Shown: in pieces, positions 10,161-39,846 of the stretch
How positions within the stretch are numbered: position 1 is the stretch's first letter
Layout of the letters: each line of letters begins with the position of its first letter
Origin: a bacterium CG_4_9_14_3_um_filter_65_15
GTDB taxonomy: Bacteria; Krumholzibacteriota; Krumholzibacteriia; LZORAL124-64-63
Length of the DNA stretch: 64,000 nt
Direction: 5' to 3'
NCBI GenBank assembly: GCA_002790835.1
Contig: PFVX01000079.1
Span: 3,130-67,129 of the forward strand
The notes under the pieces: model-generated
The model's database searches: none
Seen by the model: only the letters and a program-made list of their open reading frames with translations
Told to the model about the DNA's origin: nothing
Translations under genes and position numbers: made by a program

Positions 10161-10222
10161 AGGTGCGCGATTCCATCGCCGGAACTGGCAATCGGGGAAG
10201 ATCGAGTTCAACGATCCTGGTA

Positions 10223-11698: not shown

Positions 11699-13632
11699 GA
11701 CGTGCGCTCCCGGTTGCGGCCCTTGATCCAGCTGCGGACGGTGCGTCCGGGCACCCGCCCCAGCACACCCGGCATCACCCGGCCCATCAGGACCAGGTCA
11801 CGCTGCAGGGGGCTCTCAGGCAGTTCACCCGCGGGAATCGCCTGCAGAAGGTCTTCGACCGCGGCGCGGGCCTTTTCCCGGGGCCACGGCTCCAGCGGCT
11901 CGGATTCGGCGCTCCAGACACCCTCGGGAATCAGGTCTCCCGAGACCAGTTTGCGCACCGTATCGGCCCACCAGGGGCCGGCGGCGGCCGTCTGCAGGGG
12001 CCGCGGGCAGGATCGATCCAGCAGCAGGGAGGCGAGCTGGCTGGCGGTAAGGGCGGGGGTGTCGGACTCCTGCAGGATGGGCAGCAGGGCGGCGAAAAGA
12101 TCCCAGGCCCGGTGGCGACCGAGTCGGGCGGCCAGGTCGGGCCCCACGCCGGCCGTGCGGGCGATGTCTTCCCGCTTCCAGGGTGTCAGGGGAAGGCTGT
12201 CGTGGATATGTTCCAGCCGCTCGTCGCTCAGGCCGATGGGCGGCAGGTCGGTGTCCGGATACATGCGGTCGGCTCCCGGCAGCACCCGTTCGAAACCGTT
12301 GGTGCCGTCGTCCAGTGCCTGGCGGGTTTCCTCAGGCACGCCGACGAAGGCCTCACGGGCGCGAATGAGCACTTCGCTGACCGCGGTGGCGGCGTCCCGC
12401 TCGGAGCCCCAGACGAGGATGATGGGCACTTCGGGGCCGACGCGGCAGGTCTTGGCCACCCGCTCCCATTCACCGCTGCTGAGGGTGGGGACGTCCTGGG
12501 TGGACATCACCAGGTTGGGCAAGGTGTCCAGGCAGGCGATCACCCGGATGCGGTCGCTGAATTCCTTGAGAAAGCCCGTGCGGGGCTGGGTCTGCACCTG
12601 CAGCAATCCCTGGAAACCGGGCAGGGGCACGGCCATCACCGTGGCGCCCTTCTCCACGGCCTTGCCGATGAAGCGGCAGGCGGTGCCGCGCACGGCCGAG
12701 GTGACGTCGTTTCCGCCCTGGGGCAGGTATCCGGGTTTTGCGCCCCGATGTTCCAGTTCCCGGGCGATGGCCACGAGGGTGCGCTGACGCAGGGCCTCGT
12801 TGTGGGTCAACCGGGGGATGGCGCGCAGGCAGGGCACGCCCTTGATCTCGATGCGCGTGCCGCCGGTGACCGAGACGTTGACGTCCTGCCGGGCGGCGCC
12901 GCTGCCGGTGCGCACCAGACCGGTGGCCCGCACCAGGTGGCGCAGGACCTGGCCCACGGCCATCGCTTCGCGGGGGGTCGTCATGTCCGGGTCCGTCACC
13001 GACTCGATGAGCGGCATGCCCAGCCGGTCGGTGCGGTAGGTGCGCACGTGGCCCGCATCGGATACCTCACGGCAGGAATCCTCTTCGATGCTCAACTGGC
13101 GGATGTGGATCGACTTTTCGCCGCAGGGAATGTCGCCGTCGGTGCCGATGATGGCGGTGCGCTGGAATCCGGTGGGAATGCTGCCGTCCAGGTATTGCTT
13201 GCGGGTGATGTGGACCTCGCTGACCACGTTGCAACCCAAAAGCATGGTGATGGCGATGCTGATGTCCAGGGCCTGGTCGTCCATCTCGAAGGGCGGGGCG
13301 TCGTCCATCTCGTAGGTGCAGACGGTGTCCTTGTTCAGATGGTAGATGATGTCCTTGCGGGTCTTGAATTCCATCAGCGCCGTGCCGTCGTACTCGCCCA
13401 TTTCCGAGAGGGTGGGGCGCATGTGCCGCAGCACCTCGGCCTGGTGCTCGCCCTGGTTGTAAACCCCGGCGGGACACCGGCAGAAGAGCTTGCGGCGGGT
13501 CAGGAGCTGCTGGTGGATTTCCAGACCGCAGCGGAAGCCCAGATCGGCGTATTCGGCGTCCGATAGCGTCCCGAACAGGGGCAACGGGCCGCCTAGCCAG
13601 GAGTCGCTGAAGGCGGAGTGATCTCGTTCCAT
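11695..13632 (-). CDS. gatE: Glu-tRNA(Gln) amidotransferase subunit E (archaeal type, GatB-like)
   Basis: 645 aa from the ATG at 13632 (GGAAG ribosome-binding site). YADLGFRCGLEIHQQLLTRRKLFCRCP is the GatE/GatB cradle-domain signature. It also has an internal insertion domain and a C-terminal YqeY-like helical tail. Confidence 0.8.
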   Translation of the reverse strand: MERDHSAFSDSWLGGPLPLFGTLSDAEYADLGFRCGLEIHQQLLTRRKLFCRCPAGVYNQGEHQAEVLRHMRPTLSEMGEYDGTALMEFKTRKDIIYHLNKDTVCTYEMDDAPPFEMDDQALDISIAITMLLGCNVVSEVHITRKQYLDGSIPTGFQRTAIIGTDGDIPCGEKSIHIRQLSIEEDSCREVSDAGHVRTYRTDRLGMPLIESVTDPDMTTPREAMAVGQVLRHLVRATGLVRTGSGAARQDVNVSVTGGTRIEIKGVPCLRAIPRLTHNEALRQRTLVAIARELEHRGAKPGYLPQGGNDVTSAVRGTACRFIGKAVEKGATVMAVPLPGFQGLLQVQTQPRTGFLKEFSDRIRVIACLDTLPNLVMSTQDVPTLSSGEWERVAKTCRVGPEVPIILVWGSERDAATAVSEVLIRAREAFVGVPEETRQALDDGTNGFERVLPGADRMYPDTDLPPIGLSDERLEHIHDSLPLTPWKREDIARTAGVGPDLAARLGRHRAWDLFAALLPILQESDTPALTASQLASLLLDRSCPRPLQTAAAGPWWADTVRKLVSGDLIPEGVWSAESEPLEPWPREKARAAVEDLLQAIPAGELPESPLQRDLVLMGRVMPGVLGRVPGRTVRSWIKGRNRERTS

Positions 13633-13676
13633 GGTTACTTCCGCGCTCGGGTGGAGATGGCGTCCGGCCCAAGATA

Positions 13677-13692
13677 TTGACCCCGTGGTCAA
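13677..13692. promoter_or_regulatory. Candidate Rex operator (16-bp palindrome TTGACC-CCGT-GGTCAA) in the gatE / rex divergent region. A second partial TGTGAA half-site lies at about 13770-13790.
   Basis: Perfect 6-bp inverted arms with a 4-nt spacer, matching the TTGnnn-n4-nnnCAA architecture of Rex boxes. It lies 140 nt upstream of rex, next to a TTGACG-17-TATTCT promoter-like element (13732-13760). Confidence 0.4.
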
Positions 13693-13831
13693 AGCTCCAG
13701 GAATAGTTGGCTCTGCGGCGGAATTGCCATCTTGACGAGAGATTTCCCGTCGGATATTCTGAATGTGAATCTGGTAACATTCCCAGGCCCACTGCCAGGG
13801 CAATCTGTTTATACCTTAACGAGGTGATGTT

Positions 13832-14554
13832 GTGGTGCGTAAGAAGCGCAGAGGTTGCGATGTCCCCGAGGCGACCATTCATCGCCTTCCCCTGTACCTG
13901 GAGAAACTCAAGTTGTTGCAGGCCATCGGGGTGGAAGACGTCTCCAGCCGCCAGTTGGCCGAATCCCTGGATATCAAGGCGAGCCAGTTGCGGCACGATT
14001 TTCATTATTTCGGCGGCTTCAGCCGGCCCGGCCGGCCCTATCAAGTCGAAAAATTGGTGCCGGCCCTGGAACAGATCATCGGGATCGACGAACCGGTGCC
14101 GACCATCATCGTCGGAGCCGGCCACCTGGGCCAGGCCCTGGCCAATTATCAAAATCTGGGCCTGCAGGGTTTCCCCCTCCACGGCATTTTCGACGTCAAC
14201 CCGCGTCTGATCGGGCTGGAAATCCGCGGGCAGGCCATCCGGGACCTGGCGGATATGCCGGACATCGTCAAGCGTGACCACATCCTGATGGGGATCATCA
14301 CCGTGCCGGCGGCCAACGCCCAGCAGGTCGCCGACCGCATGGTCGAGGCCGGCATCGTGGGGATCTTCAACTTTGCGCCGACGGATCTGAAAGTGCCCGA
14401 AGGGGTTGTGGTGCGGAACGAGCGCATGGCCGTGGGCATCATGGCCCTGAGCTTCAAGGTCAAGTGCATCCTGGAATCCCGGTTGTCCGAGTCACCAGCG
14501 GATGAGGTCGGCGCCCCAGGTAAAACCACTGCCGAAGGCGAGGGTGACGACTAG
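13832..14554 (+). CDS. rex: Redox-sensing transcriptional repressor Rex
   Basis: The wHTH N-terminus IHRLPLYLEKLKLL...VSSRQLAESLDIKASQLRHDF and the Rossmann motif IIVGAGHLGQALANY are present. GTG start with a GAGGTGA ribosome-binding site. The 3' end overlaps the convergent fabH remnant. Confidence 0.85.
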   Translation: MVRKKRRGCDVPEATIHRLPLYLEKLKLLQAIGVEDVSSRQLAESLDIKASQLRHDFHYFGGFSRPGRPYQVEKLVPALEQIIGIDEPVPTIIVGAGHLGQALANYQNLGLQGFPLHGIFDVNPRLIGLEIRGQAIRDLADMPDIVKRDHILMGIITVPAANAQQVADRMVEAGIVGIFNFAPTDLKVPEGVVVRNERMAVGIMALSFKVKCILESRLSESPADEVGAPGKTTAEGEGDD

Positions 14555-15332
14555 GTTTCCCGGCTGGATGCGCCCGGCGGCGACCGCCTCGCTCAATGCG
14601 ATGGGGATGGTCGCCGCCGTCGTGTTTCCGTAGCGTTCGATGTTGCTGACCACCTTCTGCGCCGGCAGGCCCATGCGCGATCCCACAGCCTCGGTGATGC
14701 GCTGATTGGCCTGATGGGGCACCCGCAGATCCACCTCGTCGATGGTGTGCCCACCCCGTTCCAGGACCTCGTTGACGGCCTCGCAAAAACGCCGGGTGGC
14801 GTGCTTGAACACCAGCTCGCCGTCCATGGTGGGATAGTGCCGCCCCTGCTCGATCAGCCCCGGGGTGACGCGCTCCCGCACCACCGCGGTGGGAACTTCC
14901 AACCAGACGTCCTTGGCGAAGCGGCCCTGGCTGTGCAGGACCGAGGCCAGGACACCTCGGTCCTCCTCGGTGGCCTGAACGACCACGGCGCCGGCGGTCT
15001 TCAGCCCCAACAGTTCCTCGATGAAAACCCCGTTGCCGGGAAAGAAACAGTCGGGGTTCAAGGCGGCATAGATCACCAGGTCGATTTCCGACTTGTCGAT
15101 CCCCGCAGCGGCGATGGCGGCCGTGGCGGCGATGGCGGCCTTGGCCCCCAATTCGGCCCCCGATTCGGTGGACCAGCCGTTCTCATCGAGGGTGACCCCA
15201 CCGGCGTTCGCGGATCCCGCTGCGCTGGGAGATCCACTCGTCCGAGGTCTCCATCCATGGGGTCATCTCTTCGTTGGCGACGACACGCTCGGGAACATAG
15301 AATCCCGTCCCGGTGATGGCCGCTCTGGTCAT
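14492..15332 (-). pseudogene. fabH: fabH (3-oxoacyl-ACP synthase III) pseudogene with a frameshift and an internal deletion
   Basis: The N-terminal frame [44 protein letters not shown] then shifts by +1 in the G-run near 15196-15199. The downstream frame continues ...ENGWSTESGAELGAKAAIAATAAIAAAGIDKSEIDLVIYA...HQANQRI...GNTTAATIP...GSGFTWGADLIRW. Compared with E. coli FabH, about 58 aa spanning the catalytic Cys112 region (CPAFDVAAACAGF...IIFGDG) are missing at about nt 14995. Confidence 0.75.
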
Positions 15333-15348
15333 GGTCACGCCCCCGTGC

Positions 15349-16056
15349 TCAACGATGGACGGCGATGGCGCCTCGTAACTGCTTGCCGTGGGCCTGGATG
15401 AAGGCCTGGGCGGCGCCACGGTCGGGGAAGTATCCGATGCGGACCCGGTAGATCATGGCGCCATCGGCTGTGCTGCTGACCTTGACCCGGGCATCCCAAT
15501 CGAATTTCTGGAGCCGCAGGGCCTCACGGTCCGCGTTGGCCGCGTCGCCGTAGGAACCGGTCTGCACCAGATAGGGTCCGCTGGCCTCCGGTTGCACCTC
15601 GGGCAGGGGCTTGGTGGCGGGCTTCTCCCGGGCCGGCTCGGGGGCGGGCGGTGTGGTCCGGGGTGACGGCGTGGTCGCCGGGGCTGTTTCCTGCTGACCG
15701 CCGGAGGGTTTTTCCGGGGTCAGCTCCTGGGCGATGTGCTGCATCTCCACCTGACCCGAGCGGGGTTGGGCGGGGTGGTCGGCGTCGGTGTCCAGCGTGT
15801 CGGCGATGCCCAGATCCACTGCCAGGGAATCGAGGTCGTCGGCAGGGACGGTGATCACCGAGCGGTTCTCGCCGATTCCGGTGGGGCGGCCACCTCCCGG
15901 CTGTCGAAACAGCAGGAAGGCCGCCACCATGGCGACGAACAAGGCGAGCCAGATCGCGCGGGGGGTACCGCGCCGCTGATTGCGTCCGGCGGAGGGGCGG
16001 TGCCCTGTCTGAAGCAGCTGATCATCCTTGCGCGCCATGGGGTCCTTCCTGGCCAA
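15349..16056 (-). CDS. SPOR-domain protein (membrane-anchored, Pro/Thr-rich linker, C-terminal peptidoglycan-binding SPOR domain)
   Basis: One transmembrane helix ([17 protein letters not shown]) and a C-terminus [24 protein letters not shown]...[10 protein letters not shown]. An alternative start at 16038 is possible. Confidence 0.7.
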
Positions 16057-17653: not shown

Positions 17654-17682
17654 TTGAAGTCCACCCGGCTTGCTGGTAGAAT
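17654..17682 (+). promoter_or_regulatory. Sigma70-like promoter (TTGAAG-17-TAGAAT) upstream of the HMG-CoA synthase operon
   Basis: The hexamers are spaced 17 nt apart. An AAGGAGAGG ribosome-binding site precedes the ATG at 17734. A tandem CTAATCAC CAC CTAATCAC direct repeat lies about 60 nt further upstream. Confidence 0.45.
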
Positions 17683-17733: not shown

Positions 17734-18783
17734 ATGCACGGGATTGTCGGCTACGGCGCATATGTGCCGCGCTTCAGGATCAAGGCTGAGCAGATCGCCA
17801 ACCAGTGGGGCGCCGATGCGGACGCCTTCAAGAAGGGGCTGCTGCTGGAGGAGAAAACAGTCCCGGGGCCGGACGAGGACACCATCACCATCAGCGTGGC
17901 GGCGGCCCGGGATGCGGTGACCCGCGCGGGAATCGATCCCCAACTCATCGGAGCCTGCTACATCGGGTCCGAAAGCCATCCCTACGCGGTCAAGCCCTCG
18001 GGTACGGTGCTGATCGACGCCCTGGGGATCGGCCCCGATTGCCATGTGGCCGATTTCGAGTTCGCCTGCAAGGCGGGCACCGAGGCCATGTACGTGGCCT
18101 ACTCCCACGTCAAATCCGGCGAGATGCCCTACGCCCTGGGCATCGGGGCGGACACCAGCCAGGGCGCGCCCGGTGACGCCCTGGAGTACACCGCGTCGGC
18201 CGGTGGCTCGGCCTTCGTCATGGGCAGCGAGGGTGTGGTCGCCGAGATCCTCCACACCTACTCCTTCACTTCCGACACGCCGGATTTCTGGCGCCGAGAG
18301 GGGGAGTTCTATCCTCGGCACGCCGGACGTTTCACCGGGGAGCCCGCCTACTTCCATCACGTGCTCAGCTCGTGCCAAGGGATCCTCGACCGCAGCGGCA
18401 TGAAACCCGAGGACTTCCGCTACGCCGTTTTCCACATGCCCAACGGCAAGTTTCCCCTGCGGGCGGGCAAGACCATGGGCTTCACCAAGGAACAGCTCGA
18501 ACAAGGCTGGGTGGTGAACCTCATGGGCAACACCTACAGCGGTTCGTCGCCTACGGGCCTGGCGGCCTGCCTGGACGAGGCCAAGCCGGGCGATAACATC
18601 CTGATCACTTCCTTCGGCAGCGGCGCCGGTTCGGATTCCTTCATCCTGCGGGCGACCGATCGTCTGCCCGAGGTGCAGGGCCTGGCGCCCAAGGTGCGCG
18701 ACCAGCTGGCCGACCGCCGCATCCATCTGGATTACGGCAAGTACGTGGCATACCGCGGCAAGATCCGCATGAACGAGGTCTAG
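17734..18783 (+). CDS. Hydroxymethylglutaryl-CoA synthase (archaeal/UPF0219 type)
   Basis: 349 aa. [16 protein letters not shown]...[13 protein letters not shown] (catalytic Cys)...[10 protein letters not shown]...[11 protein letters not shown]. Confidence 0.85.
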
Positions 18784-18797
18784 AAAGGGGGCGGAAC

Positions 18798-19955
18798 ATG
18801 AGAGACGTAGCTGTCATCGGCACCGGCCTGACGAACTTCGGCGAACTCTGGGACATCCCCCTGCGCGACCTGTTCGCCATGGCGGCGGCCGACTGTCTGG
18901 AAGACGCGGGGGTGGAGCGCAGCCAGATCCAATCCGCGTACATCGGCTGCATGGCCAGCGGGATGTTCGTGGCCCAGGAACACCTGGCCTCCATCCTGAC
19001 CGATTACGCGGGCCTGGGGGGCATCGCCGCAACCCGGGTGGAATCGGCCTGCGCCTCCGGTGGTGCGGCTTTCCGCGCGGCCTACCTGGAGGTGGCCAGC
19101 GGGGCGAGCGATTTCGTGCTGGCAGGCGGGGTGGAGAAGATGAACGACGGCGCCGACGCCACCGTGTGTCTGGCCGCCGCCGCGGACCAGGAGTACGAGG
19201 TCTTCCACGGGGTGACCTTCCCCGGCCTGTACGCCATGATCGCCCGGGCGCACATGGCGAAATACGGCACCACGCCCGAACAGATGGCCGCCGTGGCGGT
19301 CAAGAACCACGCCAACGGGGCCCTCAACCCCAAGGCCCAGTTTCCGCGGGAGATCACCCTGCAAACGGTGCTGGGTGCGGTCCGGGTGGCAGAGCCGCTG
19401 GGATTGTTCGACTGCTCGCCCGTGACCGACGGTGGAGCCTGCGTGCTCCTGGCGCCGGTGGAGGTGGCCCGGAAGCTGGGCAAACCCATCGTGAAGATCA
19501 TCGGATCGGGGCATGCCACCGATGCCATCGCCCTGCACGATCGGGCCGATTATTCCACCATACCGGTGGTCGGTCTGGCGGCCCAGCGGGCCTTCGCCCA
19601 GGCGGGACTCGGAATCAAGGACATCGATTTCGCCGAGGTCCACGACTGCTTCACCATCGCCGAGATCGTTTGCAGCGAGGAGCTGGGCGCCTTCGAACGC
19701 GGGCAGGGCGGCCCGGCCGCCGCCGCGGGCGAGACGGCCCGGGACGGTTCGTTCCCCATCAACACGTCGGGCGGTCTGAAGAGCAAGGGCCATCCGGTGG
19801 GGGCCACGGGAATCGCGCAGATCTGCGAGATCCACAGCCAGCTCACGGGCCGGGCCGGAGGGCGCCAGCTGAAGAACCCGCGCCGTGGCCTGGCGCAGAA
19901 CATGGGCGGTTCCGGCGGCAGCTGCACCGTGCACATCCTGGAGGTGGAGTCATGA
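18798..19955 (+). CDS. Thiolase (acetyl-CoA C-acetyltransferase, SCP-x/archaeal type)
   Basis: 385 aa. [12 protein letters not shown] (active Cys) and the C-terminal [17 protein letters not shown]...[13 protein letters not shown]. Confidence 0.85.
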
Positions 19956-20347
19956 TCACCCCGCGCTATCATCGGGAAATCCCCCAGCGTTACCGGCTCG
20001 AGGCCGGCAAGTGCACGGCCTGCGGCGAGATCCATTTTCCTCCGCGCGCGGTGTGCCGCAAGTGCGCAGGCCGCGAAATGGAAACCATCGCCCTACCGCG
20101 GCGGGGCAAGGTCCTGACCCACACCACCGTGTGGATTCCGCCCGCACAGTTCGAAGAACAGAAGCCATACGTGAACGCAGTGGTTGAATTGGAAAACGGT
20201 GTCAAGTTGACCTGCATGGTTTGCGAGGCTCCGCCGGACGAGGTCACCATCGGCACCGAGGTCGAACTGGTCTTTCGCCGTCTGCAACACGGACCGGCCT
20301 GGGAAGTCATTCAGTACGGGTACAAGGCCCGGGTCATAAAGGCGTAA
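19952..20347 (+). CDS. DUF35 (Zn-ribbon plus OB-fold) acyl-CoA-associated scaffold protein
   Basis: 131 aa. C4 zinc ribbon [20 protein letters not shown] followed by an OB fold. The ATG overlaps the thiolase stop (ATGA). Confidence 0.8.
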
Positions 20348-20351
20348 TGGC

Positions 20352-21056
20352 ATGGGCAAGGGCAGGTACAAGGGCCGCCGCGCGGCGGCCTTTGTCTTCG
20401 ATCTGGACGGAACGCTGATCGATTCGGGTGAGGACATCGCCCGGTCGGCGAATTTCGTGCGCGGTCATTTCTCCCTGCCCGAACTGCCGTTGCCGACGGT
20501 GATCGGTTTCGTCGGGGACGGCGTGGAGATGCTGATGCGCCGCGCCCTGGGGCACGAAACCAAAAGCGGAAATCCCGATCTGCCCGTGGCCCCGGAGCGT
20601 CTGCAGGATGCCCTCTCCGTCTTTCGCGACCACTACGGTCGCCACCTGCTCGATCATACCCGCCTTTATCCGGGGGTCCTGGAGGTGCTCATGCGCTTCC
20701 GCGCCTTTCCCCTGCTGCTGGCCACCAACAAGCCACGCGAATTCACCGACCCGATCCTGGCCGGCCTGGGTATTCGCGACGCCTTTGCCCGCATCATCGC
20801 CGGCGACGAGACTCCCGCCCGCAAACCGGATCCCGAGCATTTGCGCCGGGTCCTGGAGGGGACCCCCGTGGCCTGCGAGGAAGTCGTGGTGGTGGGGGAC
20901 AGCCCCAACGACATCGCCGCCGCTCACGGCCTCGGCGCCGTGGCCGTTGGCTGCACCTATGGTCTGGTGGAGCCGGGCCGGATCCGGGTGGCCGGGCCGG
21001 ATCTGCTGATTGACAGCATCGGGGAGCTGTCGGCCCTATTCCCATCCAGAGCTTAA
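20352..21056 (+). CDS. HAD-superfamily hydrolase (phosphoglycolate phosphatase-like)
   Basis: Motif I FVFDLDGTLIDS, motif III K (ATNKP) and motif IV VVVGDSPNDIAAA. Confidence 0.8.
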   Translation: MGKGRYKGRRAAAFVFDLDGTLIDSGEDIARSANFVRGHFSLPELPLPTVIGFVGDGVEMLMRRALGHETKSGNPDLPVAPERLQDALSVFRDHYGRHLLDHTRLYPGVLEVLMRFRAFPLLLATNKPREFTDPILAGLGIRDAFARIIAGDETPARKPDPEHLRRVLEGTPVACEEVVVVGDSPNDIAAAHGLGAVAVGCTYGLVEPGRIRVAGPDLLIDSIGELSALFPSRA

Positions 21057-21225
21057 CTCATTGAAATTGTTATAAATAAACGATTTTGAATACGGGTTTA
21101 TCACTTATTGAAAAATAAATTCAATTTCATCTTTAATGTTACCCCATTAATCAGGTATGCTTTCTTACGCAATCGTGTCGGTGGGGAATTGGCGGTGGGG
21201 CTTCTCAACTTCCGGAGAGATTTCG
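21057..21225 (+). promoter_or_regulatory. AT-rich regulatory island (about 25% GC over about 110 nt) upstream of the desaturase-led lipid cluster
   Basis: ttgaaattgttataaataaacgattttgaatacgggtttatcacttattgaaaaataaattcaatttcatctttaatg. The GC content contrasts sharply with the flanking DNA (about 68% GC). It contains repeated ATTGAAA / AAATAAA words. A GGAGAG ribosome-binding site precedes the ATG at 21226. Confidence 0.5.
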
Positions 21226-22167
21226 ATGCGGAATGAGGCGGCCTATTTGGCGAATCCTGAGGGGTCTCGGCTCATCCGGGCGATTACCCATCTGGTGGTG
21301 TGGTTGCCCGCTGCGGGCGCCCTTGCCGGCTTGGGATTAGCCCTGACGCGGGGTGTCAGCGGCTACGCGTGGGTTTCCCTGTTGGTGATGTATGTGCTGA
21401 CGGTCACCGGTGTCGAACTGGGGCTGCACCGCTACGTTTCCCACCACGCCTTTCGGGCGCATCCGGTGGTGGAATTCTTCCTGGTGACATTCGGCTCCAT
21501 GGCCGCCCAGGGGGGACCGCTCTACTGGGCGTCGACCCATCGCCGCCATCACGCCTTTTCCGATCGCCCGGGCGACCCGCATTCCCCGCACCTCAGCGGT
21601 GGGGGGCCGCGCGGTTGCCTGACGGGAATGCTGCACGCGCACATGGGATGGTTGTTCCAGCCGGTGCATTCGGATTGGCTGCGCTACGTTCCCGACCTGA
21701 TCAAGGATTCGCGGTTGTTCACCCTGCACAGGTTGTATTTTCTCTGGATCGCGCTGGGCGTGTTGCTTCCGGCGGCCGTGGGTTTGATCTGGACACAAAG
21801 CTTGTATGGCGCGCTGGAAGGCCTCTTGTGGGGCGGATTGGGGAGGATCTTCCTGGTGCATCATGCCGTGTGGGGAGTCAATTCCCTGTGCCACGTGTTC
21901 GGCAGCCGACCCTTCGCCACCCGGGAACAAAGCCGCAACCTGGCCTGGATGGCCCTGCCTTCCCTGGGCGGAGCCTGGCACAACAACCACCACGCCTTTC
22001 CCCGCACGGCCGACAACCGGCTGCGCTGGTGGCAGTTCGATTTCTGCGGCATGGTCGCGCGGATCCTGGAGCGCACGGGACTGATCCGGGACGTCCACTA
22101 TGCCGATCCCGAATCCTTCGTTGCCGTCCCCTCGTCTCAAAAACCACCTGTGGCTATGGAGGGATGA
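21226..22167 (+). CDS. Membrane fatty-acid desaturase (stearoyl-CoA/acyl-lipid delta-9-type family), paralog 1
   Basis: Three histidine boxes HRYVSHH, HRRHH and HNNHH, with 4 transmembrane helices. The ORF track starts earlier (21157), but 21226 has the ribosome-binding site. Confidence 0.8.
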   Translation: MRNEAAYLANPEGSRLIRAITHLVVWLPAAGALAGLGLALTRGVSGYAWVSLLVMYVLTVTGVELGLHRYVSHHAFRAHPVVEFFLVTFGSMAAQGGPLYWASTHRRHHAFSDRPGDPHSPHLSGGGPRGCLTGMLHAHMGWLFQPVHSDWLRYVPDLIKDSRLFTLHRLYFLWIALGVLLPAAVGLIWTQSLYGALEGLLWGGLGRIFLVHHAVWGVNSLCHVFGSRPFATREQSRNLAWMALPSLGGAWHNNHHAFPRTADNRLRWWQFDFCGMVARILERTGLIRDVHYADPESFVAVPSSQKPPVAMEG

Positions 22168-22168
22168 C

Positions 22169-23164
22169 ATGACCAACCCCGACCTCGCCGTCCCCTTGGA
22201 CGACACCCCTTACACCGTTGCCGGCTCCGCCGAACGCCGCCGGTTGCGCCTCATTGCCGGCGCCGTCGTGGTGGTGCCGCTGCTCGGCACGCTCCTGGCG
22301 GTGTGGCTCGCGGTAACAGGGGGCCTCGGCGCCCTGGAGATCTGGTCCTTCGCCATCGGTTATGCGCTGACCCTGATGGGCATCACCGTGGGGTTCCACC
22401 GGCACTTCGCCCATCGTTCCTTCCTCGCCGGACCGGCGATGCGGGTGGTGCTGGCAACCCTGGGTTCCATGGCCGGGCAAGGCCCACTCATCTGGTGGGT
22501 GGCCACCCACCGGCGGCATCACCGCTTGAGCGATCGCGACGGCGATCCCCATTCCCCGCAACTCGCTTCCGGGCGGGGTCCGCTGCGGGCTCTCAAGGGA
22601 TTCTGGCAGGGGCACATCGCCTGGATGTTCTCCGACCGCATCAGCAACTGGAGCCTGTTTGCCCGCGACATGCTGGGGGACCGGCTGGTGGTGCGGATGC
22701 ATCAACTCTACTTCCCGATCTTCCTGCTGGGGATCATCCTGCCGGCGGCGATCGGCGGCCTCGTGACCGGTACCTGGAACGGGGTCCTGATGGGTTTCCT
22801 GTGGGGCGGACTGGTCAGGATCTTCGCCGTCGACCACGTGCTGTGGTGCGTGGGTTCGATCTGCCACATGATCGGTTTGCGCCCCTTCCGGGCGCGCACG
22901 CGCGATCACAGCACCAACAACCTGGCGGTGGCCTTTTTCGGTTTCGGCGAAGGCCTGCAGAACAACCATCACGCCTTTCCTCGCGACGCCTACCACGGTT
23001 TTCGCTGGTACGAGCCCGACCTGGGCGCCGGGACCATCCGGCTGCTGAGCCGGGTGGGACTGGTCTGGGACGTGGTGGCGACTCCGTCCCACGCCTGGAA
23101 ACTGGCCGAGGACCGCAACCGGGAAAATCCCGACCGGGCGGACCGCAGGCAGGGCGCGGCTTGA
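22169..23164 (+). CDS. Membrane fatty-acid desaturase, paralog 2 (tandem duplicate)
   Basis: HRHFAH, HRRHH and HNNHH boxes. The ATG lies 1 nt after the stop of paralog 1. The two proteins are clearly homologous but diverged. Confidence 0.8.
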   Translation: MTNPDLAVPLDDTPYTVAGSAERRRLRLIAGAVVVVPLLGTLLAVWLAVTGGLGALEIWSFAIGYALTLMGITVGFHRHFAHRSFLAGPAMRVVLATLGSMAGQGPLIWWVATHRRHHRLSDRDGDPHSPQLASGRGPLRALKGFWQGHIAWMFSDRISNWSLFARDMLGDRLVVRMHQLYFPIFLLGIILPAAIGGLVTGTWNGVLMGFLWGGLVRIFAVDHVLWCVGSICHMIGLRPFRARTRDHSTNNLAVAFFGFGEGLQNNHHAFPRDAYHGFRWYEPDLGAGTIRLLSRVGLVWDVVATPSHAWKLAEDRNRENPDRADRRQGAA

Positions 23165-23199
23165 GCGACACCTCCCAAGGACCGAATGGAGAATGACTG

Positions 23200-23538
23200 A
23201 TGTGGAAGAAAATGTTGACCCTGGTGGGCCTGAAGCCCCGGACATCGGACGTGGTCTTTGCGCGTCCCCCGGCCAATGAGCAGGAGGTCCGGGCGGGCCT
23301 GACGGCCGCGGTGGCCAAACGGGCCGGGCTGGATGCGGGCGGACTGGATCCCGAGCGCACCTTCGCCCAGCTGGGCTTCGATTCCCTGCAGGCCATGAAA
23401 TTCACCGGAAACCTTGAGAAGGATCTGGGTCTCGAGCTCGACCCCACCCTGATGTGGGATCATCCCACGGTCGCCAAGTTGACCGCCTACCTGACCGAGC
23501 GTCTGGACTTTGCCGCCGGGCGGAGGTCCATCGCGTGA
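23200..23538 (+). CDS. Acyl carrier protein-like (phosphopantetheine attachment DSL motif)
   Basis: LGFDSLQAMKF with flanking helices. The stop overlaps the fatty acyl-AMP ligase GTG start (GTGA). An alternative start at 23212 is possible. Confidence 0.65.
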   Translation: MWKKMLTLVGLKPRTSDVVFARPPANEQEVRAGLTAAVAKRAGLDAGGLDPERTFAQLGFDSLQAMKFTGNLEKDLGLELDPTLMWDHPTVAKLTAYLTERLDFAAGRRSIA

Positions 23539-25307
23539 AGGAACCTGCCGCCGTGTCCGGTCTTCAGGTCGGTGCCTCCGACCTGGGAGAGGTCCTGAGG
23601 CTGAGGTCGGAGGCCCACGGCGATCGATTGGCCTGCGCTTTCCTGCGCGACGGGGTGGACATCGCCGATTCCTGGACCTACGGCGAGTTGGACGCCCGGG
23701 CGCGCGCCATTGCCGCCCGGTTGCAGGGCCAGTTTGCTCCCGGGGACCGGCTCGTGCTGCTGTATCCGCCGGGGTTGGACTTCGTGGCGGCATTTTTCGG
23801 GTGTCTCTATGCCGGGATGATTGCGGTGCCGGCCTATCCTCCCCGTCGGGGCAAGGAGGACGTGCGAATCGTGGCCCTGGCGCATGATTGCCGTCCGGCG
23901 GGATTCCTGTCCGTGGCCGCGGGAGTGGAGGATCTCGAGGTTCTGCAGACGGCCCTGGGCGCGGGCGAGGGCGGGGTGGTGGCCACCGACGTCATCGGCG
24001 CGGACCATGCCGGAGATTTCAACCTTCGGGCCATCGACCCCGGCGCGGTGGCTTTTCTCCAGTACACGTCCGGCAGCACCGCCGCCCCCAAGGGGGTCAT
24101 GGTCACCCATGCCAACATGATGGCCAACGAATTCGCCATCCAGGCGGTGATGGAGCACGACGAGTCCCTGGTCGCCCTGGGTTGGCTGCCGGTCTTTCAC
24201 GACATGGGGCTGCTGGGCAACCTGCTGCAGCCCCTGTTTGTCGGCGGCAGCAGCATCCTGATTCCACCGTTGACCTTCCTCAAGCGTCCGCTCTGCTGGT
24301 TGGAAGCGGTGTCGAAATACGGGGCGACCTCCAGCGGGGGTCCCAACTTCGCCTTCGATCTCTGCGCCCGCCTGGCCGAGGCCCAGGGAGTGCCCAAGGG
24401 CTTGGATCTTTCCAGCTGGACGGTGGCCTACGTGGGAGCCGAACCCGTCCGCCCCGACACCCTGCGCCGCTTCGCTGCGGCCTTCAAGGGGGCCGGCTTC
24501 CGGTCGGAGGCCTACTTTCCCTGCTACGGCATGGCCGAAAGCACCCTGATCGCCACCGGCGGACCCAAGGCCCGCCCACCGGTACTTCCCCGCATCAGCA
24601 CCCGGGCCCTGCTCGAGGGGCGGGGTGAGACGCGACGGCTGCCGGGGCCGGGTTCGCGCCGGATCACCGGCTGCGGACACGCCGTTCCGCAGCACACCGT
24701 TCTGGTGGTCGACCCGGAAACCCGCGAGCCCAGCGCCGACGGGTCGGTGGGAGAAATCTGGATATCCGGCCCCAGTGTCGCGATCGGCTACTACCGCAAC
24801 CCGGAGGCCACCGAGGAGATCTTTGCCGTGCGGACAACCGACGGCCGGGGGCCTTTCCTGCGCACCGGCGACCTGGGCTTTGCCCGGGACGGGGAGTTTT
24901 TCATCACCGGTCGCTTGAAGGATATGCTGGTCATCCGGGGGCAGAACCACTACCCCAGCGACATCGAGTTGACCGTCGAGGGGGCGCACCCGGGTCTGCA
25001 GCCCAATGCGAGCGCCGCGTTTTCCACCGAGGTCGACGGCGCAGAAAGGCTCGTGGTCGCGGTGGAGATCTCCCGGATGCTGTATCAGCAGCTGGCCCGC
25101 GGCGGCGACGGCTCCGGGGAATTGCCCCTCGATGAGTTGGTCGCGGCCGTCCGCGAAAAAGTCATGGAGATCCACGAAATTCCCGTCCATCAGCTGGCGA
25201 TCCTCAAGCCGGGCGGTGTGCCCCGCACATCCAGCGGCAAGATCAGGCGCGCCGAGTGCCGGCGCCTGCACGGCGAACGAAAGCTGACCGCCCTTGCTGT
25301 CGCCTGA
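23535..25307 (+). CDS. Fatty acyl-AMP ligase (FAAL, FadD32-like adenylating enzyme)
   Basis: FLQYTSGSTAAPKGVMVTHANMMAN (FAAL-type A3 motif), YGMAESTL, the ISGPSVAIGYY...GDLGF...GRLKDMLVIRGQNHYP motifs and the C-terminal SSGKIRR. Confidence 0.8.
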   Translation: MKEPAAVSGLQVGASDLGEVLRLRSEAHGDRLACAFLRDGVDIADSWTYGELDARARAIAARLQGQFAPGDRLVLLYPPGLDFVAAFFGCLYAGMIAVPAYPPRRGKEDVRIVALAHDCRPAGFLSVAAGVEDLEVLQTALGAGEGGVVATDVIGADHAGDFNLRAIDPGAVAFLQYTSGSTAAPKGVMVTHANMMANEFAIQAVMEHDESLVALGWLPVFHDMGLLGNLLQPLFVGGSSILIPPLTFLKRPLCWLEAVSKYGATSSGGPNFAFDLCARLAEAQGVPKGLDLSSWTVAYVGAEPVRPDTLRRFAAAFKGAGFRSEAYFPCYGMAESTLIATGGPKARPPVLPRISTRALLEGRGETRRLPGPGSRRITGCGHAVPQHTVLVVDPETREPSADGSVGEIWISGPSVAIGYYRNPEATEEIFAVRTTDGRGPFLRTGDLGFARDGEFFITGRLKDMLVIRGQNHYPSDIELTVEGAHPGLQPNASAAFSTEVDGAERLVVAVEISRMLYQQLARGGDGSGELPLDELVAAVREKVMEIHEIPVHQLAILKPGGVPRTSSGKIRRAECRRLHGERKLTALAVA

Positions 25308-26436
25308 AGCAGCCCCTGTTCCTCCCGCAACGGGCAGCTACGCCGTGCGGCGCTTTCGGCCCGCCGACCAGCCCGCCCTGATCGCCTTGCTGGGTGACGT
25401 GTGGGGCGAAGATTTCGCCCGCCTCATGGAGCGGATCTGGAGCTGGAAGTACGACCGCAACCCCCACAATCCTCCGGGCGGGCACAACTCCATGGTCTTG
25501 ACCTGGGCGGAAGAGCCGGTGGGCTTTCTGGGCATGATGTCGGCCAACCTGAAGGTGGCCGACCAGGTCGTGCCCCTGGCCTGGGGATCGGAACTGGCCG
25601 TGCATCCCCGGCATCGGGGCGAAGGCTACCGGGTTATCGTGAACATCGGCACCGACGCGGAAAAGCTCATCGCGGGAACGGCCCGCACGCGGGATCTGGC
25701 CGGACTGCCCCTGGGCTTCGGCGCCTTCGATATCACCCGCATGATCAGCCACAAGCTGATCCTGCGGCCACGGCGATTCCTGGCAGCCAAGGCCGGAGGG
25801 GGGTGGGCGGCGGCGCTGGGAGCTCCGCTGGTGGGTTGGGCGGTCGCCTTGGCGCAGAAGCTCGGGCCCGGACGCCGGACTCCGGCCGTGGAATTGGAGG
25901 AAGTCGAGGACTTCGGACCGGAGTTCGATATCCTGTGGGAGAATGTGGCGCCGGGTTACCCGCTGATCCCGGTGCGGGACCGGGCCTTCCTGCAGTGGCG
26001 TTTCCGGGAGTGCCCGATTCGCGACCACACCGTGCTGGCGGTCCGCAGACTGGGAGTCCTGCACGGTTACGTCGTCTACAGGTTGGAAGGTGAACCGGGA
26101 TTGCGCCGGGCCTACATCGTGGATATGCTGGCCGGCCGGGACGATGCCGCTACCTGGGACCTGCTGCTGGGGGGTGTCGAGGCTCATTGCCGCGCAGCCG
26201 GCGCGGACATCCTGACCTTTACCATGTCCGCATCGTGGGATCTGGGCACTTCCCTGCGCCGGCGCGGATACCTTTTCCGTTCGCCACGGGCCTGGATCAC
26301 GGGCCACACCGGTTGCAAACCGGAGTATGCCCATCTGCGAGAGGGCCTGGAGCACAGCACAGGCCTGGTGATGACCCGGGCCGACACGGACCTGGACTTC
26401 AACTACTGGGGGTTGCGCGATGAAGGCCGGGAGTAA
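25294..26436 (+). CDS. GNAT-fold (FemAB / Acetyltransf_6-like, two-lobed) N-acyltransferase, putative
   Basis: 380 aa. Two GNAT-like halves (RFRPADQPALIALLGDVWGEDFA...; ...FLQWRFRE...AYIVDMLA). The TTG start is uncertain. It overlaps both neighbouring genes. Confidence 0.45.
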   Translation: MLSPEAAPVPPATGSYAVRRFRPADQPALIALLGDVWGEDFARLMERIWSWKYDRNPHNPPGGHNSMVLTWAEEPVGFLGMMSANLKVADQVVPLAWGSELAVHPRHRGEGYRVIVNIGTDAEKLIAGTARTRDLAGLPLGFGAFDITRMISHKLILRPRRFLAAKAGGGWAAALGAPLVGWAVALAQKLGPGRRTPAVELEEVEDFGPEFDILWENVAPGYPLIPVRDRAFLQWRFRECPIRDHTVLAVRRLGVLHGYVVYRLEGEPGLRRAYIVDMLAGRDDAATWDLLLGGVEAHCRAAGADILTFTMSASWDLGTSLRRRGYLFRSPRAWITGHTGCKPEYAHLREGLEHSTGLVMTRADTDLDFNYWGLRDEGRE

Positions 26437-27304
26437 CCCAACGCCTCGGCCGGTGGCCTTCGTCCACATCCCCAAGGCGGCCGGCACCACACTGCACGGG
26501 ATCCTTGCGCGCCAGTATCCGGCGGCTCACACGCTGATCCTGGACGTTCAGCGCCCCGAGTACCGCCGGAATCTGGACGGCATCACCGAGCAGCAATGGG
26601 CGTCGGCCCTCTGTCTGCGGGGCCACATGCCCTTCGGCATGCACCGCCGAACGGAACGGGAATTCGCCTACGTCACCGTGCTTCGCGATCCGGTCACCCG
26701 CATCATTTCCAAGTACCGCAACCTGCAGCGCCGGCCCGAGCGGGCGCGGGAGATGGCCTTCCCGCCCGATCGCCTGGAAACGCTGGAGGACTTCATCGCC
26801 CTGCAGGGCGAACGCAACGCCCTGAATTTCCAGACGCGAATGCTGGCGGGTTGGGTCGAACCCGACGCCCCCCTGTTTCCCTATGCGCAGCCCCTGCCGG
26901 ATGAAGCGCTGGATCTGGCCAAGGCCAACATCGAAAAGCACTTCGCCGTGGTGGGGCTGCAGGAACGCTTCGCCGAATCGGTGGCCCTGATGCAGCTTGC
27001 GCTGGGGTGGCGGCAAGTGGGGATTCCGCGGCGCAACGCCGCCCCCGCTGCGGCGGACCGGTACGATTTGGCCGTGCACGATGAGATCCGGAAACTCAAC
27101 CATCTGGACCAGGCCCTGGTGGCTTATGCGGCCAAGCGGCTGGATGAGCAGATCGCCGCCGAGGGGGAGGATTTTGAGCGCGCCTTGCAGGGGATCAAGA
27201 GCCGGAGTCGGGTCGCGGACAACCTGCAGAACTTGGTCCGCGGCTCGGGTCTGAGGCGCGTCGGTTCCCTGGTCAGGAAATGGCGCGTCAGAACTTCCGG
27301 GTGA
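26420..27304 (+). CDS. Sulfotransferase (carbohydrate/Stf-like family, PAPS-dependent)
   Basis: The 5'-PSB motif FVHIPKAAGTT and the 3'-PB motif TVLRDPVTRIISKYR are present. Confidence 0.6.
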   Translation: MKAGSNPTPRPVAFVHIPKAAGTTLHGILARQYPAAHTLILDVQRPEYRRNLDGITEQQWASALCLRGHMPFGMHRRTEREFAYVTVLRDPVTRIISKYRNLQRRPERAREMAFPPDRLETLEDFIALQGERNALNFQTRMLAGWVEPDAPLFPYAQPLPDEALDLAKANIEKHFAVVGLQERFAESVALMQLALGWRQVGIPRRNAAPAAADRYDLAVHDEIRKLNHLDQALVAYAAKRLDEQIAAEGEDFERALQGIKSRSRVADNLQNLVRGSGLRRVGSLVRKWRVRTSG

Positions 27305-38055: not shown

Positions 38056-39846
38056 GTGAAGAAGATGATCCGGATCGGCAACGCCGGGGGATATTGGGGC
38101 GATGACATGGATGCCTTGCGCCGACAGCTCGTCGGCGGCCCTCTCGACTACATCACCATGGATTTTTTGGCCGAGATCACCATGTCGATCCTGCGCAAGC
38201 AACAGCTGCAGAATCCCGAGCTCGGCTACGCCCGCGATTTCCTGACCCAGCTGGAAACCTGCCTGCCCCTGATCGTCGAGAAGAAAGTGCGGGTCATCAA
38301 CAATGCCGGCGGCATGAATCCGGTCGGGCTGGGCCGGAAGATCCGTGCCATGGCACGCCGCATGGAGCTGGACCTGAAAGTGGGCGTGGTCTACGGGGAC
38401 GACATCAGCAATCGTCTGTACGAATTGACGGCCGCGGGTGAGAAGTTCACCAACATGGAGACCGGCGAAGCCTTCACCGGAGTGCGCAACCGCGTCACCT
38501 CGGCCAACGTGTATCTGGGGGCCGAACCGGTGGTCGCGGCCCTCGACGCCGGGTGCGACATCATCGTCACCGGTCGGGTCACCGACACCGGGATCACCCT
38601 GGCGCCCATGATCCACGAATTCGGCTGGTCCATGACCGACTGGGACAAGATGGCGGCGGGGATTATCGCCGGCCACATCATCGAGTGCGGCGCCCAGGGC
38701 AGCGGGGGAAACATCACCGACTGGCAGGAAGTCCCCTCCTTCGACAACATGGGCTATCCCATCATCGAGATGCAGCGCGACGGCGATTTCCGCGTCACCA
38801 AGCACAAGCGCACCGGCGGCCTGGTGAGCGAGAAATCCGTCAAGGAGCAGCTCGTCTACGAGATGGGGGATCCGGGGCAGTACATTTCGCCGGACGGGGT
38901 GGCGTTCTTCAACACCATCGAGGTCAAGCAGGACGGAAAGGACCGGGTACGGGTCAGCGGTGCGCGCGGCGGACCGGCGCCCTCCTCGTTCAAGGTGTCG
39001 ATGGCCTTTCAGGACGGCTGGAAAGCGGAGGGGGAGATTCTGCTCTGCGGACCGAACATCGAGGACAAGGCCGAAACGGTGGCGGAAACATTCTGGCGCA
39101 AGGTGGGCCACGAGTTCGAAGACACCGCCACCGCAATGGTGGGTGCGGGCTCCATCTGGCCGGATCGGCTCGCCGATTACAGCCCCCACGAGATCTTCCT
39201 GCGCTTCGGGGTCCGCGACCACGACGTGTCCAAGGTCCAGGATTTCGGTAAGACCCTGCCGGCCATGATCCTGGCCGGGCCTTCGGGCATGGCGGCCAGC
39301 ACCCGGGGGCGCCCCCGGCCTCAGCAGGTGGTCTCCTACTGGCCGGCTCTCATGCGCCGCGACGGAGTCTCGGCCAAGGTGCTGACCCTGGGCACGGACT
39401 GCAGCGAGAAGTTCCAGGAGATCCACTTTCCGGTGCGCGGCGAGGTTGATGAGCCCGTGGCCAACCGGATCAGCCGGCGGCCTGTCCGTCGCGATTGGCC
39501 GGCCTCGACAACCGAGGTGCCCCTGAGCCGATTGTGTTACGCGAGGAGCGGGGACAAGGGGGATACCTGCAACATCGGCGTCCTGGCCCGTTCTCCCGGG
39601 GCCTACGAATGGCTGCGGGGATTTCTGACGGCGGGCCGGATCAAGCGTTACTTCGGGGCCAAGGTGCGGGGCAAGGTCACGCGCTACGAACTCGACAACC
39701 TCCAGGGTTTGAACTTCCTGCTGGCCGGGGCCCTCGGTGGTGGCGGAACCACCAGCCTGCTGGTCGATCCCCAGGGAAAAACCATGAGCCAGGCTCTCTT
39801 GCAGATGAAGGTCCGGGCGCCGCGCGCCCTGCTCAGAGGGTTGTGA
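38056..39846 (+). CDS. AtuA-like (acyclic terpene utilisation; DUF1446 plus DUF4387) protein
   Basis: MIRIGNAGGYWGDD...DYITMDFLAEITMSIL...IVTGRVTDTGI, and the C-terminal LCYARSGDKGDTCNIGVLARS. The GTG start has an AAGGAG ribosome-binding site 6 nt upstream. Confidence 0.7.
   Translation: MKKMIRIGNAGGYWGDDMDALRRQLVGGPLDYITMDFLAEITMSILRKQQLQNPELGYARDFLTQLETCLPLIVEKKVRVINNAGGMNPVGLGRKIRAMARRMELDLKVGVVYGDDISNRLYELTAAGEKFTNMETGEAFTGVRNRVTSANVYLGAEPVVAALDAGCDIIVTGRVTDTGITLAPMIHEFGWSMTDWDKMAAGIIAGHIIECGAQGSGGNITDWQEVPSFDNMGYPIIEMQRDGDFRVTKHKRTGGLVSEKSVKEQLVYEMGDPGQYISPDGVAFFNTIEVKQDGKDRVRVSGARGGPAPSSFKVSMAFQDGWKAEGEILLCGPNIEDKAETVAETFWRKVGHEFEDTATAMVGAGSIWPDRLADYSPHEIFLRFGVRDHDVSKVQDFGKTLPAMILAGPSGMAASTRGRPRPQQVVSYWPALMRRDGVSAKVLTLGTDCSEKFQEIHFPVRGEVDEPVANRISRRPVRRDWPASTTEVPLSRLCYARSGDKGDTCNIGVLARSPGAYEWLRGFLTAGRIKRYFGAKVRGKVTRYELDNLQGLNFLLAGALGGGGTTSLLVDPQGKTMSQALLQMKVRAPRALLRGL

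Follow-up and report, generated by a model that had tools for sequence, protein, structure and literature searches.

The best-described relative of the genes considered here is the three-protein complex of Methanothermococcus thermolithotrophicus (structures 6ESQ and 6ET9), in which a 3-hydroxy-3-methylglutaryl-CoA (HMG-CoA) synthase, HMGCS, is joined to a thiolase and to a small protein of the former DUF35 family, and for which a channeling mechanism has been demonstrated (Voegeli et al., 2018, as related in PMC12960953). The subject of this analysis is a bacterial module of the same three proteins, encoded at positions 17734-20347 of a stretch of 64,000 nucleotides (64 kb; hereafter, the window) of contig PFVX01000079.1, from a representative of the Krumholzibacteriota (assembly GCA_002790835.1). 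The bacterial and the archaeal modules agree in gene order, in catalytic motifs and in the possession of a zinc ribbon. However, the host of the window is a bacterium of the Fibrobacteres-Chlorobi-Bacteroidetes (FCB) group, no mevalonate genes are found near its module, and its HMGCS falls into a separate clade; and while complex formation is known for the archaeal proteins, here it is predicted from the genes.

Other described systems share some of these features. The only bacterial homologs studied biochemically are PhlACB (Pseudomonas) and MucABC (Streptococcus), which have a homologous architecture, and whose genes, phlACB and mucABC, follow an order identical to that of the module; in a 2026 study of MucABC, these repurposed acyltransferases are described as having lost the E-C-H-N tetrad of HMG-CoA synthases and the HDxF motif of the thiolases (PMC12960953). 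Their tetrad positions hold residues of the C/G/Q/D type, and no HMG-CoA is made by them, whereas the window proteins keep both sets of residues; in our alignment, PhlA has G, Q, and D at the positions of the Cys, the His, and the Asn. Within the FCB group, metagenome-assembled genomes (MAGs) of Candidatus Cloacimonetes encode a complete methylerythritol phosphate (MEP) pathway and, of the mevalonate enzymes, only the thiolase (AACT) and the HMG-CoA synthase (HMGS), the DUF35 protein, the gene order, and the neighbors being outside the scope of that study (Villanueva et al., 2021; PMC7852524). The same superfamily and the same chemistry are also represented by MvaS/MvaE of Staphylococcus and Enterococcus and by the polyketide enzymes PksG and CurD. 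One more system of relevance is the alternative isovaleryl-CoA pathway of Myxococcus xanthus (MvaS, LiuC, AibA/B, and AibC), in which HMG-CoA made by HMGS is passed through a LiuC-type dehydratase toward a branched C5 acyl-CoA, AibA/B being a 3-methylglutaconyl-CoA decarboxylase with a CoA-transferase fold.

Identity of the Module

An earlier note on this DNA, made from the letters alone, had described the module as an archaeal-style set of an HMGCS, an SCP-x-related thiolase, and a DUF35 protein, and comparisons with Pfam, NCBIfam, and the Protein Data Bank (PDB) support this description, with all three open reading frames (ORFs) on the forward strand and their boundaries exactly as proposed. 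The first gene (17734..18783) encodes an archaeal-type HMGCS of 349 amino acids, assigned by NCBIfam equivalog models, PDB matches, and the catalytic tetrad. It passes the cut-offs of two equivalog models, with 511 bits against NF003274 (cut-off 244) and 496 bits against TIGR00748, “HMG_CoA_syn_Arc” (cut-off 353); against TIGR01835, the model for the bacterial HMGS, it reaches 111 bits, below the cut-off of 360. Its best match among known structures is chain 6ESQ_I (438 bits); PhlA scores 203 bits, while the MvaS-type structures score only 66-81 bits, and CurD only 31 bits. The second gene (18798..19955) encodes an archaeal/SCP-x-related acetoacetyl-CoA thiolase of 385 amino acids, with Pfam domains Thiolase_N and Thiolase_C_1, with a score against NF004720 of 505 bits (cut-off 420), and with structural matches to 7YVY (344 bits), 6ESQ_A (340 bits), and PhlC (103 bits). 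The third gene (19952..20347) encodes the putative scaffold, a protein of 131 amino acids composed of a zinc ribbon and an oligonucleotide/oligosaccharide-binding (OB) fold, matching zf-ChsH2 (PF12172) and OB_ChsH2_C (PF01796), formerly DUF35, above the Pfam cut-offs. NCBIfam holds no model for the DUF35 protein of the module; its best structural match is 6ESQ_E (92 bits), with PhlB at 43 bits. Global identities to the respective Methanothermococcus chains are 56.7% for HMGCS, 46.8% for the thiolase, and 40.0% for the DUF35 protein.

The catalytic residues are retained throughout. The HMGCS tetrad E80, C112, H234, and N266 aligns with E82/C114/H238/N270 of Methanothermococcus and is invariant across 158 homologs. 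The thiolase possesses the motifs C85-A-S87, H282-D-C-F285, and G331-H332, which are invariant in 73 bacterial loci, save for one D-to-N replacement at the HDxF aspartate. The four cysteines of the zinc ribbon in the DUF35 protein are C21, C24, C35, and C38. As all the catalytic motifs are kept, and given the identities to the archaeal chains, we assign the module, with high confidence as to its biochemistry, to the archaeal-type complex family as a catalytically competent member, for which assembly and channeling would be expected by analogy.

Based on the 40-57% identity and on the intact state of every catalytic motif, the mechanism of the archaeal complex may be extended to the window proteins. 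In this scheme, Cys85 of the thiolase would condense two acetyl-CoA into acetoacetyl-CoA, an uphill reaction, and HMGCS, through Glu80, Cys112, His234, and Asn266, would at once add a third acetyl-CoA, forming HMG-CoA and pulling the thiolase step forward. The zinc-ribbon/OB protein would tether the two enzymes, with acetoacetyl-CoA being passed on at a shared CoA site.

Some homologs of these proteins deviate from the pattern. Of the 70 bacterial DUF35 homologs, 12 to 15, depending on the position, have cysteines of the zinc ribbon replaced or deleted, while HMGCS and the thiolase are intact. The loci concerned are probably those of the lowest DUF35 identity to the window (33-40%, of the Kapabacteria type; L026-L028, L031, L033, L037, and similar ones), and the DUF35 protein may be able to act as a scaffold without its ribbon. 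Among the archaeal-like thiolases (loci L087-L166), 15 of 62 have G, D, S, or E aligned with the catalytic Cys85, and eight are devoid of the histidine of the GH motif; these could be cases of alignment slippage or a real inactive paralog.

Distribution, Gene Order, and Phylogeny

Scanning one genome per GTDB species confirmed at least 583 loci, of which the best 80 were analyzed as the bacterial loci (numbered from L001). These best 80 belong to Krumholzibacteriota, Ignavibacteria, Kapabacteria, Gemmatimonadota, Fidelibacterota/Marinimicrobia, Calditrichia, and Bacteroidota bins, with identities to the window of 82-97% in MAGs of Candidatus Krumholzibacteriota/-ia and of 71-75% in other FCB phyla. 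A second set was made of 80 metagenome loci, those with the HMGCS most similar to that of Methanothermococcus, including low-GC contigs resembling Methanococcales and Methanobacteriales. The order HMGCS-thiolase-DUF35, which had been taken to be unusual, turns out to be the sole order in both sets (in the bacterial loci, wherever the contig was long enough for the order to be read), and the thiolase-first order was never seen in the 80 loci nearest the Methanothermococcus enzyme.

In a neighbor-joining tree rooted with PhlA, the 80 bacterial HMGCS sequences form a single clade, with the FCB sequences monophyletic, whose sister is a group of four metagenome loci (L131, L132, L155, and L166). 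The HMGCS of the archaeal-like loci never exceeds 64% identity to that of the window. A sequence identical to the window HMGCS is present on 22 public contigs, including GCA_002781425.1, and one contig of 262 kb in ENA carries the identical HMGCS with the same gene order as in the window. In the NCBI database, identical proteins are found under “bacterium CG17_big_fil_post_rev_8_21_14_2_50_64_8,” with HMGCS (PIV80661.1) named “hydroxymethylglutaryl-CoA synthase” and the thiolase (PIV80662.1) named “acetyl-CoA acetyltransferase.” Thus, two of the three proteins are already named correctly, and the family is known, structurally solved, and widespread in FCB bacteria. The DUF35 protein (PIV80663.1/PJA73894.1) is misnamed “transcriptional regulator,” and therefore automated pathway calls will miss the third subunit.

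Metabolic Context and the Fate of HMG-CoA

As a whole, the data are best explained, in our opinion probably though by no means firmly, by a bacterial version of the archaeal-type HMG-CoA-forming complex that feeds a branched-C5 acyl-CoA metabolism other than the mevalonate pathway. HMG-CoA would be interconverted with 3-methylglutaconyl-CoA, followed by 3-methylcrotonyl- and isovaleryl-CoA, and/or would undergo a cleavage of the AtuA/citramalate-lyase type. The enzymes of such a network would be a LiuC-type dehydratase, an enzyme of the 3-methylcrotonyl-CoA carboxylase (MCC) type, AtuA, CoA-transferases, and short-chain acyl-CoA dehydrogenases (ACADs). This fate is favored because the module recurs in FCB genomes in operons with genes of these kinds, which are typical of leucine/isovalerate metabolism, and never with mevalonate genes.

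The neighborhoods were surveyed by clustering all the ORFs of the 80 loci and annotating the recurrent families, followed by targeted tblastn. A gene for AtuA lies no more than 10 kb from the module in 27 of the 80 loci; the two share a strand in 26 of these, the arrangement varies, and AtuA_ferredoxin (AtuA_Fd) is either encoded separately or fused to AtuA. AtuA is directly downstream of the module in Ignavibacteria, and directly upstream in a Krumholzibacteriia MAG (L018, 6048-8177), in a Calditrichia MAG (L065), and in a “Cytophagia” bin (L042, 7582-9299). In the latter, the order is carboxyltransferase, AtuA, AtuA_Fd, module, an NTP-transferase/hexapeptide gene, enoyl-CoA hydratase (ECH), and ACAD. 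The Zixibacteria locus L167 is composed of the module, two small genes, AtuA (10001-11794), carboxyltransferase, ECH, a GIY-YIG gene, biotin carboxylase, and biotin carboxyl carrier protein. Its carboxyltransferase is of the MCC type, scoring 757 and 738 bits to the human and the Pseudomonas MCC beta subunits, respectively, versus 459 bits to geranyl-CoA carboxylase and at most 268 bits to propionyl-CoA carboxylases. In L166, of the sister clade, a tight six-gene operon is made of the module, carboxyltransferase, ECH, and biotin carboxylase, with two genes for CoA-transferase subunits divergent from it. In three further loci (L040, L046, and L058), ECH is directly after or close behind DUF35, and the Kapabacteria-type loci possess two short-chain (Bcd-like) ACADs just upstream of the module and the same carboxyltransferase within 8 kb. 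NCBIfam gave no specific assignment for the ECH, carboxyltransferase, and ACAD neighbors, and comparisons with PDB were more telling: the ECH of L040 is best matched by 3KQF, an uncharacterized ECH family protein (215 bits), followed by LiuC of Myxococcus (5JBW/5JBX; 201 bits), the human methylglutaconyl-CoA hydratase (192 bits), and crotonase (173 bits). With LiuC/AUH-like ECH, MCC-type subunits, a CoA-transferase pair, and ACAD near the module (L040, L042, L046, L058, L166, and L167), these loci would resemble the Myxococcus pathway. They also differ from it, as Myxococcus employs a bacterial-type MvaS without a DUF35 protein, while AtuA and biotin carboxylase, as found in the FCB loci, are outside the myxobacterial scheme.

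In the window, AtuA is the sole neighbor of the Liu/Atu type. Its gene (38065..39846, forward strand) is 17.7 kb downstream of the module and encodes a protein of 593 amino acids in which AtuA and AtuA_ferredoxin are fused (PF07287 and PF23544). Synteny across phyla makes AtuA a candidate functional partner of the module. Two PDB entries, 9ERQ and 9EVF, were deposited as “AtuA family protein / citramalate lyase subunit A (cmlA),” and a profile of nine AtuA sequences matches them weakly (E 0.0019). An AlphaFold model of the window AtuA (pLDDT 82, pTM 0.85; alignment of 22 sequences) was compared by Foldseek with 9EVF, the “citramalate lyase - ADP - pyruvate complex”; it matches chain 9EVF_A with an E value of 2.8e-23 and a TM-score of 0.73, and its C-terminal domain matches chain 9EVF_B with a TM-score of 0.69. 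As the model matches both chains, the window AtuA is predicted to combine CmlA-like and CmlB-like parts in one fused enzyme. Citramalate is a 3-hydroxy-3-methyl dicarboxylate homologous to HMG, and thus a C-C lyase-type reaction of AtuA on HMG-CoA or a relative of it is a reasonable, though unproven, proposition. Literature searches returned no paper giving the AtuA family a biochemical function, and none on the 9ERQ/9EVF citramalate lyase. More tentatively, and with less than even confidence, we propose that the FCB module, that of the window included, may have no part in the mevalonate pathway and may instead be the core of an undescribed bacterial HMG-CoA pathway that links acetyl-CoA with branched C5 units, with AtuA, of the ADP-binding CmlAB fold, as a dedicated partner. 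A small ORF of the GIY-YIG type (UPF0213) is found inside the AtuA clusters of both Ignavibacteria (L070, 14332-14640) and Zixibacteria (L167, 14318-14695), as an odd conserved passenger.

A number of observations weigh against the branched-C5 proposal, or against parts of it. At the level of the enzymes, the thiolase scores 489 bits against NF053570, the equivalog specific to Methanothermococcus, for which the cut-off is 600, and both complex formation and activity of the bacterial members are judged from sequence. As to the context, the ECH neighbors are barely closer to LiuC/AUH than to crotonase, and the ACAD is closer to Bcd than to isovaleryl-CoA dehydrogenase; with similarities so marginal, part of this context could be ordinary genes of butyrate metabolism or beta-oxidation. 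The Liu/Atu link is weak in the clade of the window, as AtuA is found at 10 kb or less from the module in only two of the 22 Krumholzibacteria-like loci. In the window itself, AtuA is at the distance given above, no MCC or LiuC-type gene is present in the 64 kb, and neither is an ACAD or a CoA-transferase pair like those seen in the other loci. The flux may run toward the synthesis of branched C5 units or toward their breakdown, and the reaction of AtuA is putative. Finally, a gene for HMG-CoA reductase (HMGR) may be located elsewhere in the genome, outside the 64 kb searched, and in Archaea the mevalonate genes are typically dispersed.

This last point leads to the alternative that the module is the entry to a complete mevalonate pathway making isoprenoids, with HMGR, mevalonate kinase, and the later enzymes encoded elsewhere, dispersed as in Archaea. 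We consider this unlikely, even though the three proteins are orthologs of the complex by which Archaea enter the mevalonate pathway. Class II HMGR is found beside the same module in five archaeal/DPANN-like metagenome loci, directly adjoining the operon in L133, L139, and L163, and within approximately 0.5 to 2.3 kb in L145 and L129, and thus the module does serve the mevalonate pathway elsewhere; the HMGR of L145 matches an NCBI protein labeled “archaeon.” Another point in favor is MiaA, the tRNA dimethylallyltransferase, which uses dimethylallyl diphosphate: in 25 Ignavibacteria-type loci (L049, 8974-9894, and 24 others), the module is immediately preceded, on its own strand, by genes for MiaA and for a protein-isoaspartate methyltransferase, and no neighborhood examined offers a hint of isoprenoid metabolism other than MiaA. 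As the HMGR search covered the window and the locus flanks, the rest of the genome is left as a possible site. On the other side, no mevalonate or MEP gene is among the annotated genes of the window. Motif regular expressions (81 sequences) gave no credible match to HMGR or to GHMP kinases, either in the window or in the 10-kb flanks of the module in the 80 bacterial loci, and these 80 loci had no tblastn match to HMGR of either class. Clustering of GHMP kinases or isopentenyl phosphate kinase with HMGS was not seen either, with neither a GHMP motif nor a Pfam match in the window or the flanks. The neighbors that do recur are genes of the Liu/Atu type. Mevalonate genes are mostly clustered in bacteria, and 58 of 59 phyla possess the MEP pathway; bacteria encoding at least three of the mevalonate enzymes come mainly from seven phyla/classes, with Bacteroidetes as the sole FCB lineage, and the text of the paper does not mention Ignavibacteria, Gemmatimonadetes, or the candidate FCB phyla (PMC6107057). 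The Cloacimonetes, in which the two enzymes are accompanied by a complete MEP pathway and by no further mevalonate genes (PMC7852524), present an FCB precedent against this alternative. Our database searches were less informative. With a profile of the human and the Pseudomonas mevalonii HMGR, only Pseudomonas and vertebrates were among the matches listed, which did not extend to Krumholzibacteriota; with a profile of the five class II HMGRs encoded beside the module in the archaeal-like loci, DPANN, Thermoplasmata, Acetothermia, and Pseudomonas were among the matches listed, with flat scores, and Krumholzibacteriota were again not reached. The tblastn searches with Dxs, Dxr, IspD, IspF, IspG, and IspH of Escherichia coli gave no matches in the 2.1 Mb of loci, which is uninformative, these being small parts of genomes. 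No paper joining Krumholzibacteriota with mevalonate was found in the literature search. Overall, HMG-CoA would most likely not be the entry to a classical mevalonate pathway in this organism; the non-mevalonate context as such is, in our judgment, about as probable as not.

Of the remaining alternatives, one keeps HMG-CoA as the product but gives it a different purpose. The complex and an AtuA/citramalate-lyase-type enzyme could together make an HMG-CoA cycle, either producing acetoacetate (ketogenesis) or, in reverse, acting as an “HMG-CoA thiolase” that ends the breakdown of leucine or isovalerate with three acetyl-CoA. The minimal conserved set in Ignavibacteria, the module with AtuA and AtuA_Fd, would suit such a cycle, as would the predicted citramalate-lyase fold of AtuA and the situation in L166/L167, where the module occupies the place expected for HMG-CoA lyase in an MCC-hydratase operon, with CoA-transferases nearby. 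We still find it improbable: HMG-CoA synthase is regarded as physiologically irreversible, the synthase and a lyase would in sum hydrolyze a thioester with no obvious benefit, and the reaction of AtuA is only putative, its gene not being adjacent to the module in the window. Very much less probable are two roles in secondary metabolism. A Friedel-Crafts C-acyltransferase of the PhlACB/MucABC type, acetylating a small-molecule acceptor, would account for the shared three-protein architecture and gene order, with Phl and Muc as the experimentally characterized bacterial homologs (PMC12960953), and the Phl chains do appear as weaker PDB matches. However, the archaeal chains are matched with two to three times the score, the operon has no type III polyketide synthase, nonribosomal peptide synthetase, or other acceptor-forming gene, and the module is housekeeping-like and conserved across phyla. 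It is the motif test that contradicts this role, and on which it was rejected, as the E-C-H-N and HDxF residues lost in PhlA/MucA and PhlC/MucB are kept. Equally remote is the notion of HMGCS as a PksG-type beta-branching enzyme, or a supplier of starter units, for the lipid-type cluster at 21157-27304. A polyketide-starter route had been suggested before, and an acyl carrier protein (ACP) and a fatty acyl-AMP ligase are indeed encoded 3 kb downstream on the same strand, an arrangement common to L003 and L004. Yet HMGCS is far closer to the archaeal enzyme (438 bits) than to PhlA (203) or CurD (31) and has the E-C-H-N residues, the operon is devoid of ECH and ketosynthase (KS) genes, with neither the ECH1/ECH2 pair nor the decarboxylating KS of such cassettes, the module is found without the lipid cluster in the remaining Krumholzibacteria-like loci that were examined, and L168 and L169 have no such cluster at the corresponding place, between the genes for HAD and Fer4. 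With the CurD score and the missing ECH1/ECH2 and KS, this role was rejected as well.

If the branched-C5 proposal with AtuA as a partner is true, the undescribed pathway could supply primers for iso-branched lipids or leucine, or it could complete the fermentation of leucine with a thioester saved. Should HMG-CoA be used in this way for iso-branched lipids or leucine, by way of AtuA, MCC, and LiuC-type enzymes, a function would be found for AtuA, long an orphan family, the debate over archaeal-like lipid genes in FCB bacteria would be affected, and “mevalonate pathway” assignments made automatically in metagenome reconstructions of these phyla would have to be revised. Taken alone, the module adds little: it is a routine member of its family, already annotated, and the family has been solved structurally. 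What it exposes is the presence of a strongly conserved HMG-CoA-forming complex (71-75% identity between phyla) over many FCB phyla, with no mevalonate genes near the module in the loci examined, and it is the role of this conserved “orphan” module and of its recurrent AtuA partner that deserves attention.

Expression Signals and Neighborhood in the Window

The three genes most likely form one operon. The translational coupling proposed for the thiolase and DUF35 genes is real, as the stop of the former and the start of the latter overlap in an ATGA at 19952-19955, read in the sequence, with GGAGGTGGAG immediately 5' of the overlap. The ATG of the HMGCS gene has an AGGAGA 8 nt upstream, and the spacer of 14 nt between the HMGCS and thiolase genes carries a purine-rich AAGGGGG before the thiolase ATG, so that ribosome-binding sites accompany the operon structure. 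A candidate promoter of the sigma-70-like type (TTGAAG-17 nt-TAGAAT with an upstream TG; 17654..17682, forward strand) is located in the divergent intergenic region of 239 bp, about 50 nt upstream of the HMGCS gene. The consensus scan found two sites versus 0.6 expected, a pattern match only and not proof of function. The G+C content of the window is 65%, and real genes stand out by a third-position G+C (GC3) above 0.8; at 0.86-0.87, the HMGCS and thiolase genes are like other genes of the window.

Downstream of the module are genes for a haloacid dehalogenase (HAD) phosphatase, two fatty-acid desaturases, ACP, fatty acyl-AMP ligase, a GNAT-like protein, and a sulfotransferase. The HAD gene (20352..21056, forward strand) begins 4 nt past the DUF35 stop and is probably co-transcribed with the module; its product is of the HAD-IA type and similar to phosphoglycolate phosphatases by Pfam and NCBIfam, with scores below the equivalog cut-offs. 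It had been considered a clue to function, but it follows the module in the nearest relatives only (L001-L004 and the contigs with identical HMGCS, L081-L086), and the same synteny exists without the module: in the Krumholzibacteriota loci L168 and L169, the order symporter(SSF)-HAD-Fer4-methyltransferase-amylase-AtuA is kept, with neither the module nor the lipid cluster in place. This makes the HAD gene and the lipid cluster positional neighbors of the module rather than its partners. The cluster, composed of the genes from the desaturases to the sulfotransferase, occupies the forward strand between the HAD and Fer4 genes, and at least its first four genes are common to L003 and L004; as it is missing from the otherwise syntenic L168/L169, it looks like a lineage-specific insertion. 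The flanks of the other Krumholzibacteria-like loci are unrelated (GAPDH, permeases, patatin/Omp85, AMP-ligase).

Upstream of the module are a divergent Na+/solute symporter, a SPOR protein, a split FabH-like gene, Rex, and GatE/GatD. The presence of GatDE, the archaeal-type Glu-tRNA(Gln) amidotransferase, had been noted before and is correct, with GatD (GatD_N and asparaginase domains) at 10307-11698 and GatE (GatB_N) at 11695-13803, both on the reverse strand; their position is conserved in L002-L004 and in L081/L086. The FabH-like gene, also on the reverse strand, is split into two ORFs in different frames (14492-15151 and 15183-15419), and the larger piece appears to be without the segment that normally bears the catalytic cysteine. 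As the call of 219 amino acids recurs in independent assemblies (L081-L084 and L086), the split is not an error of a single assembly.

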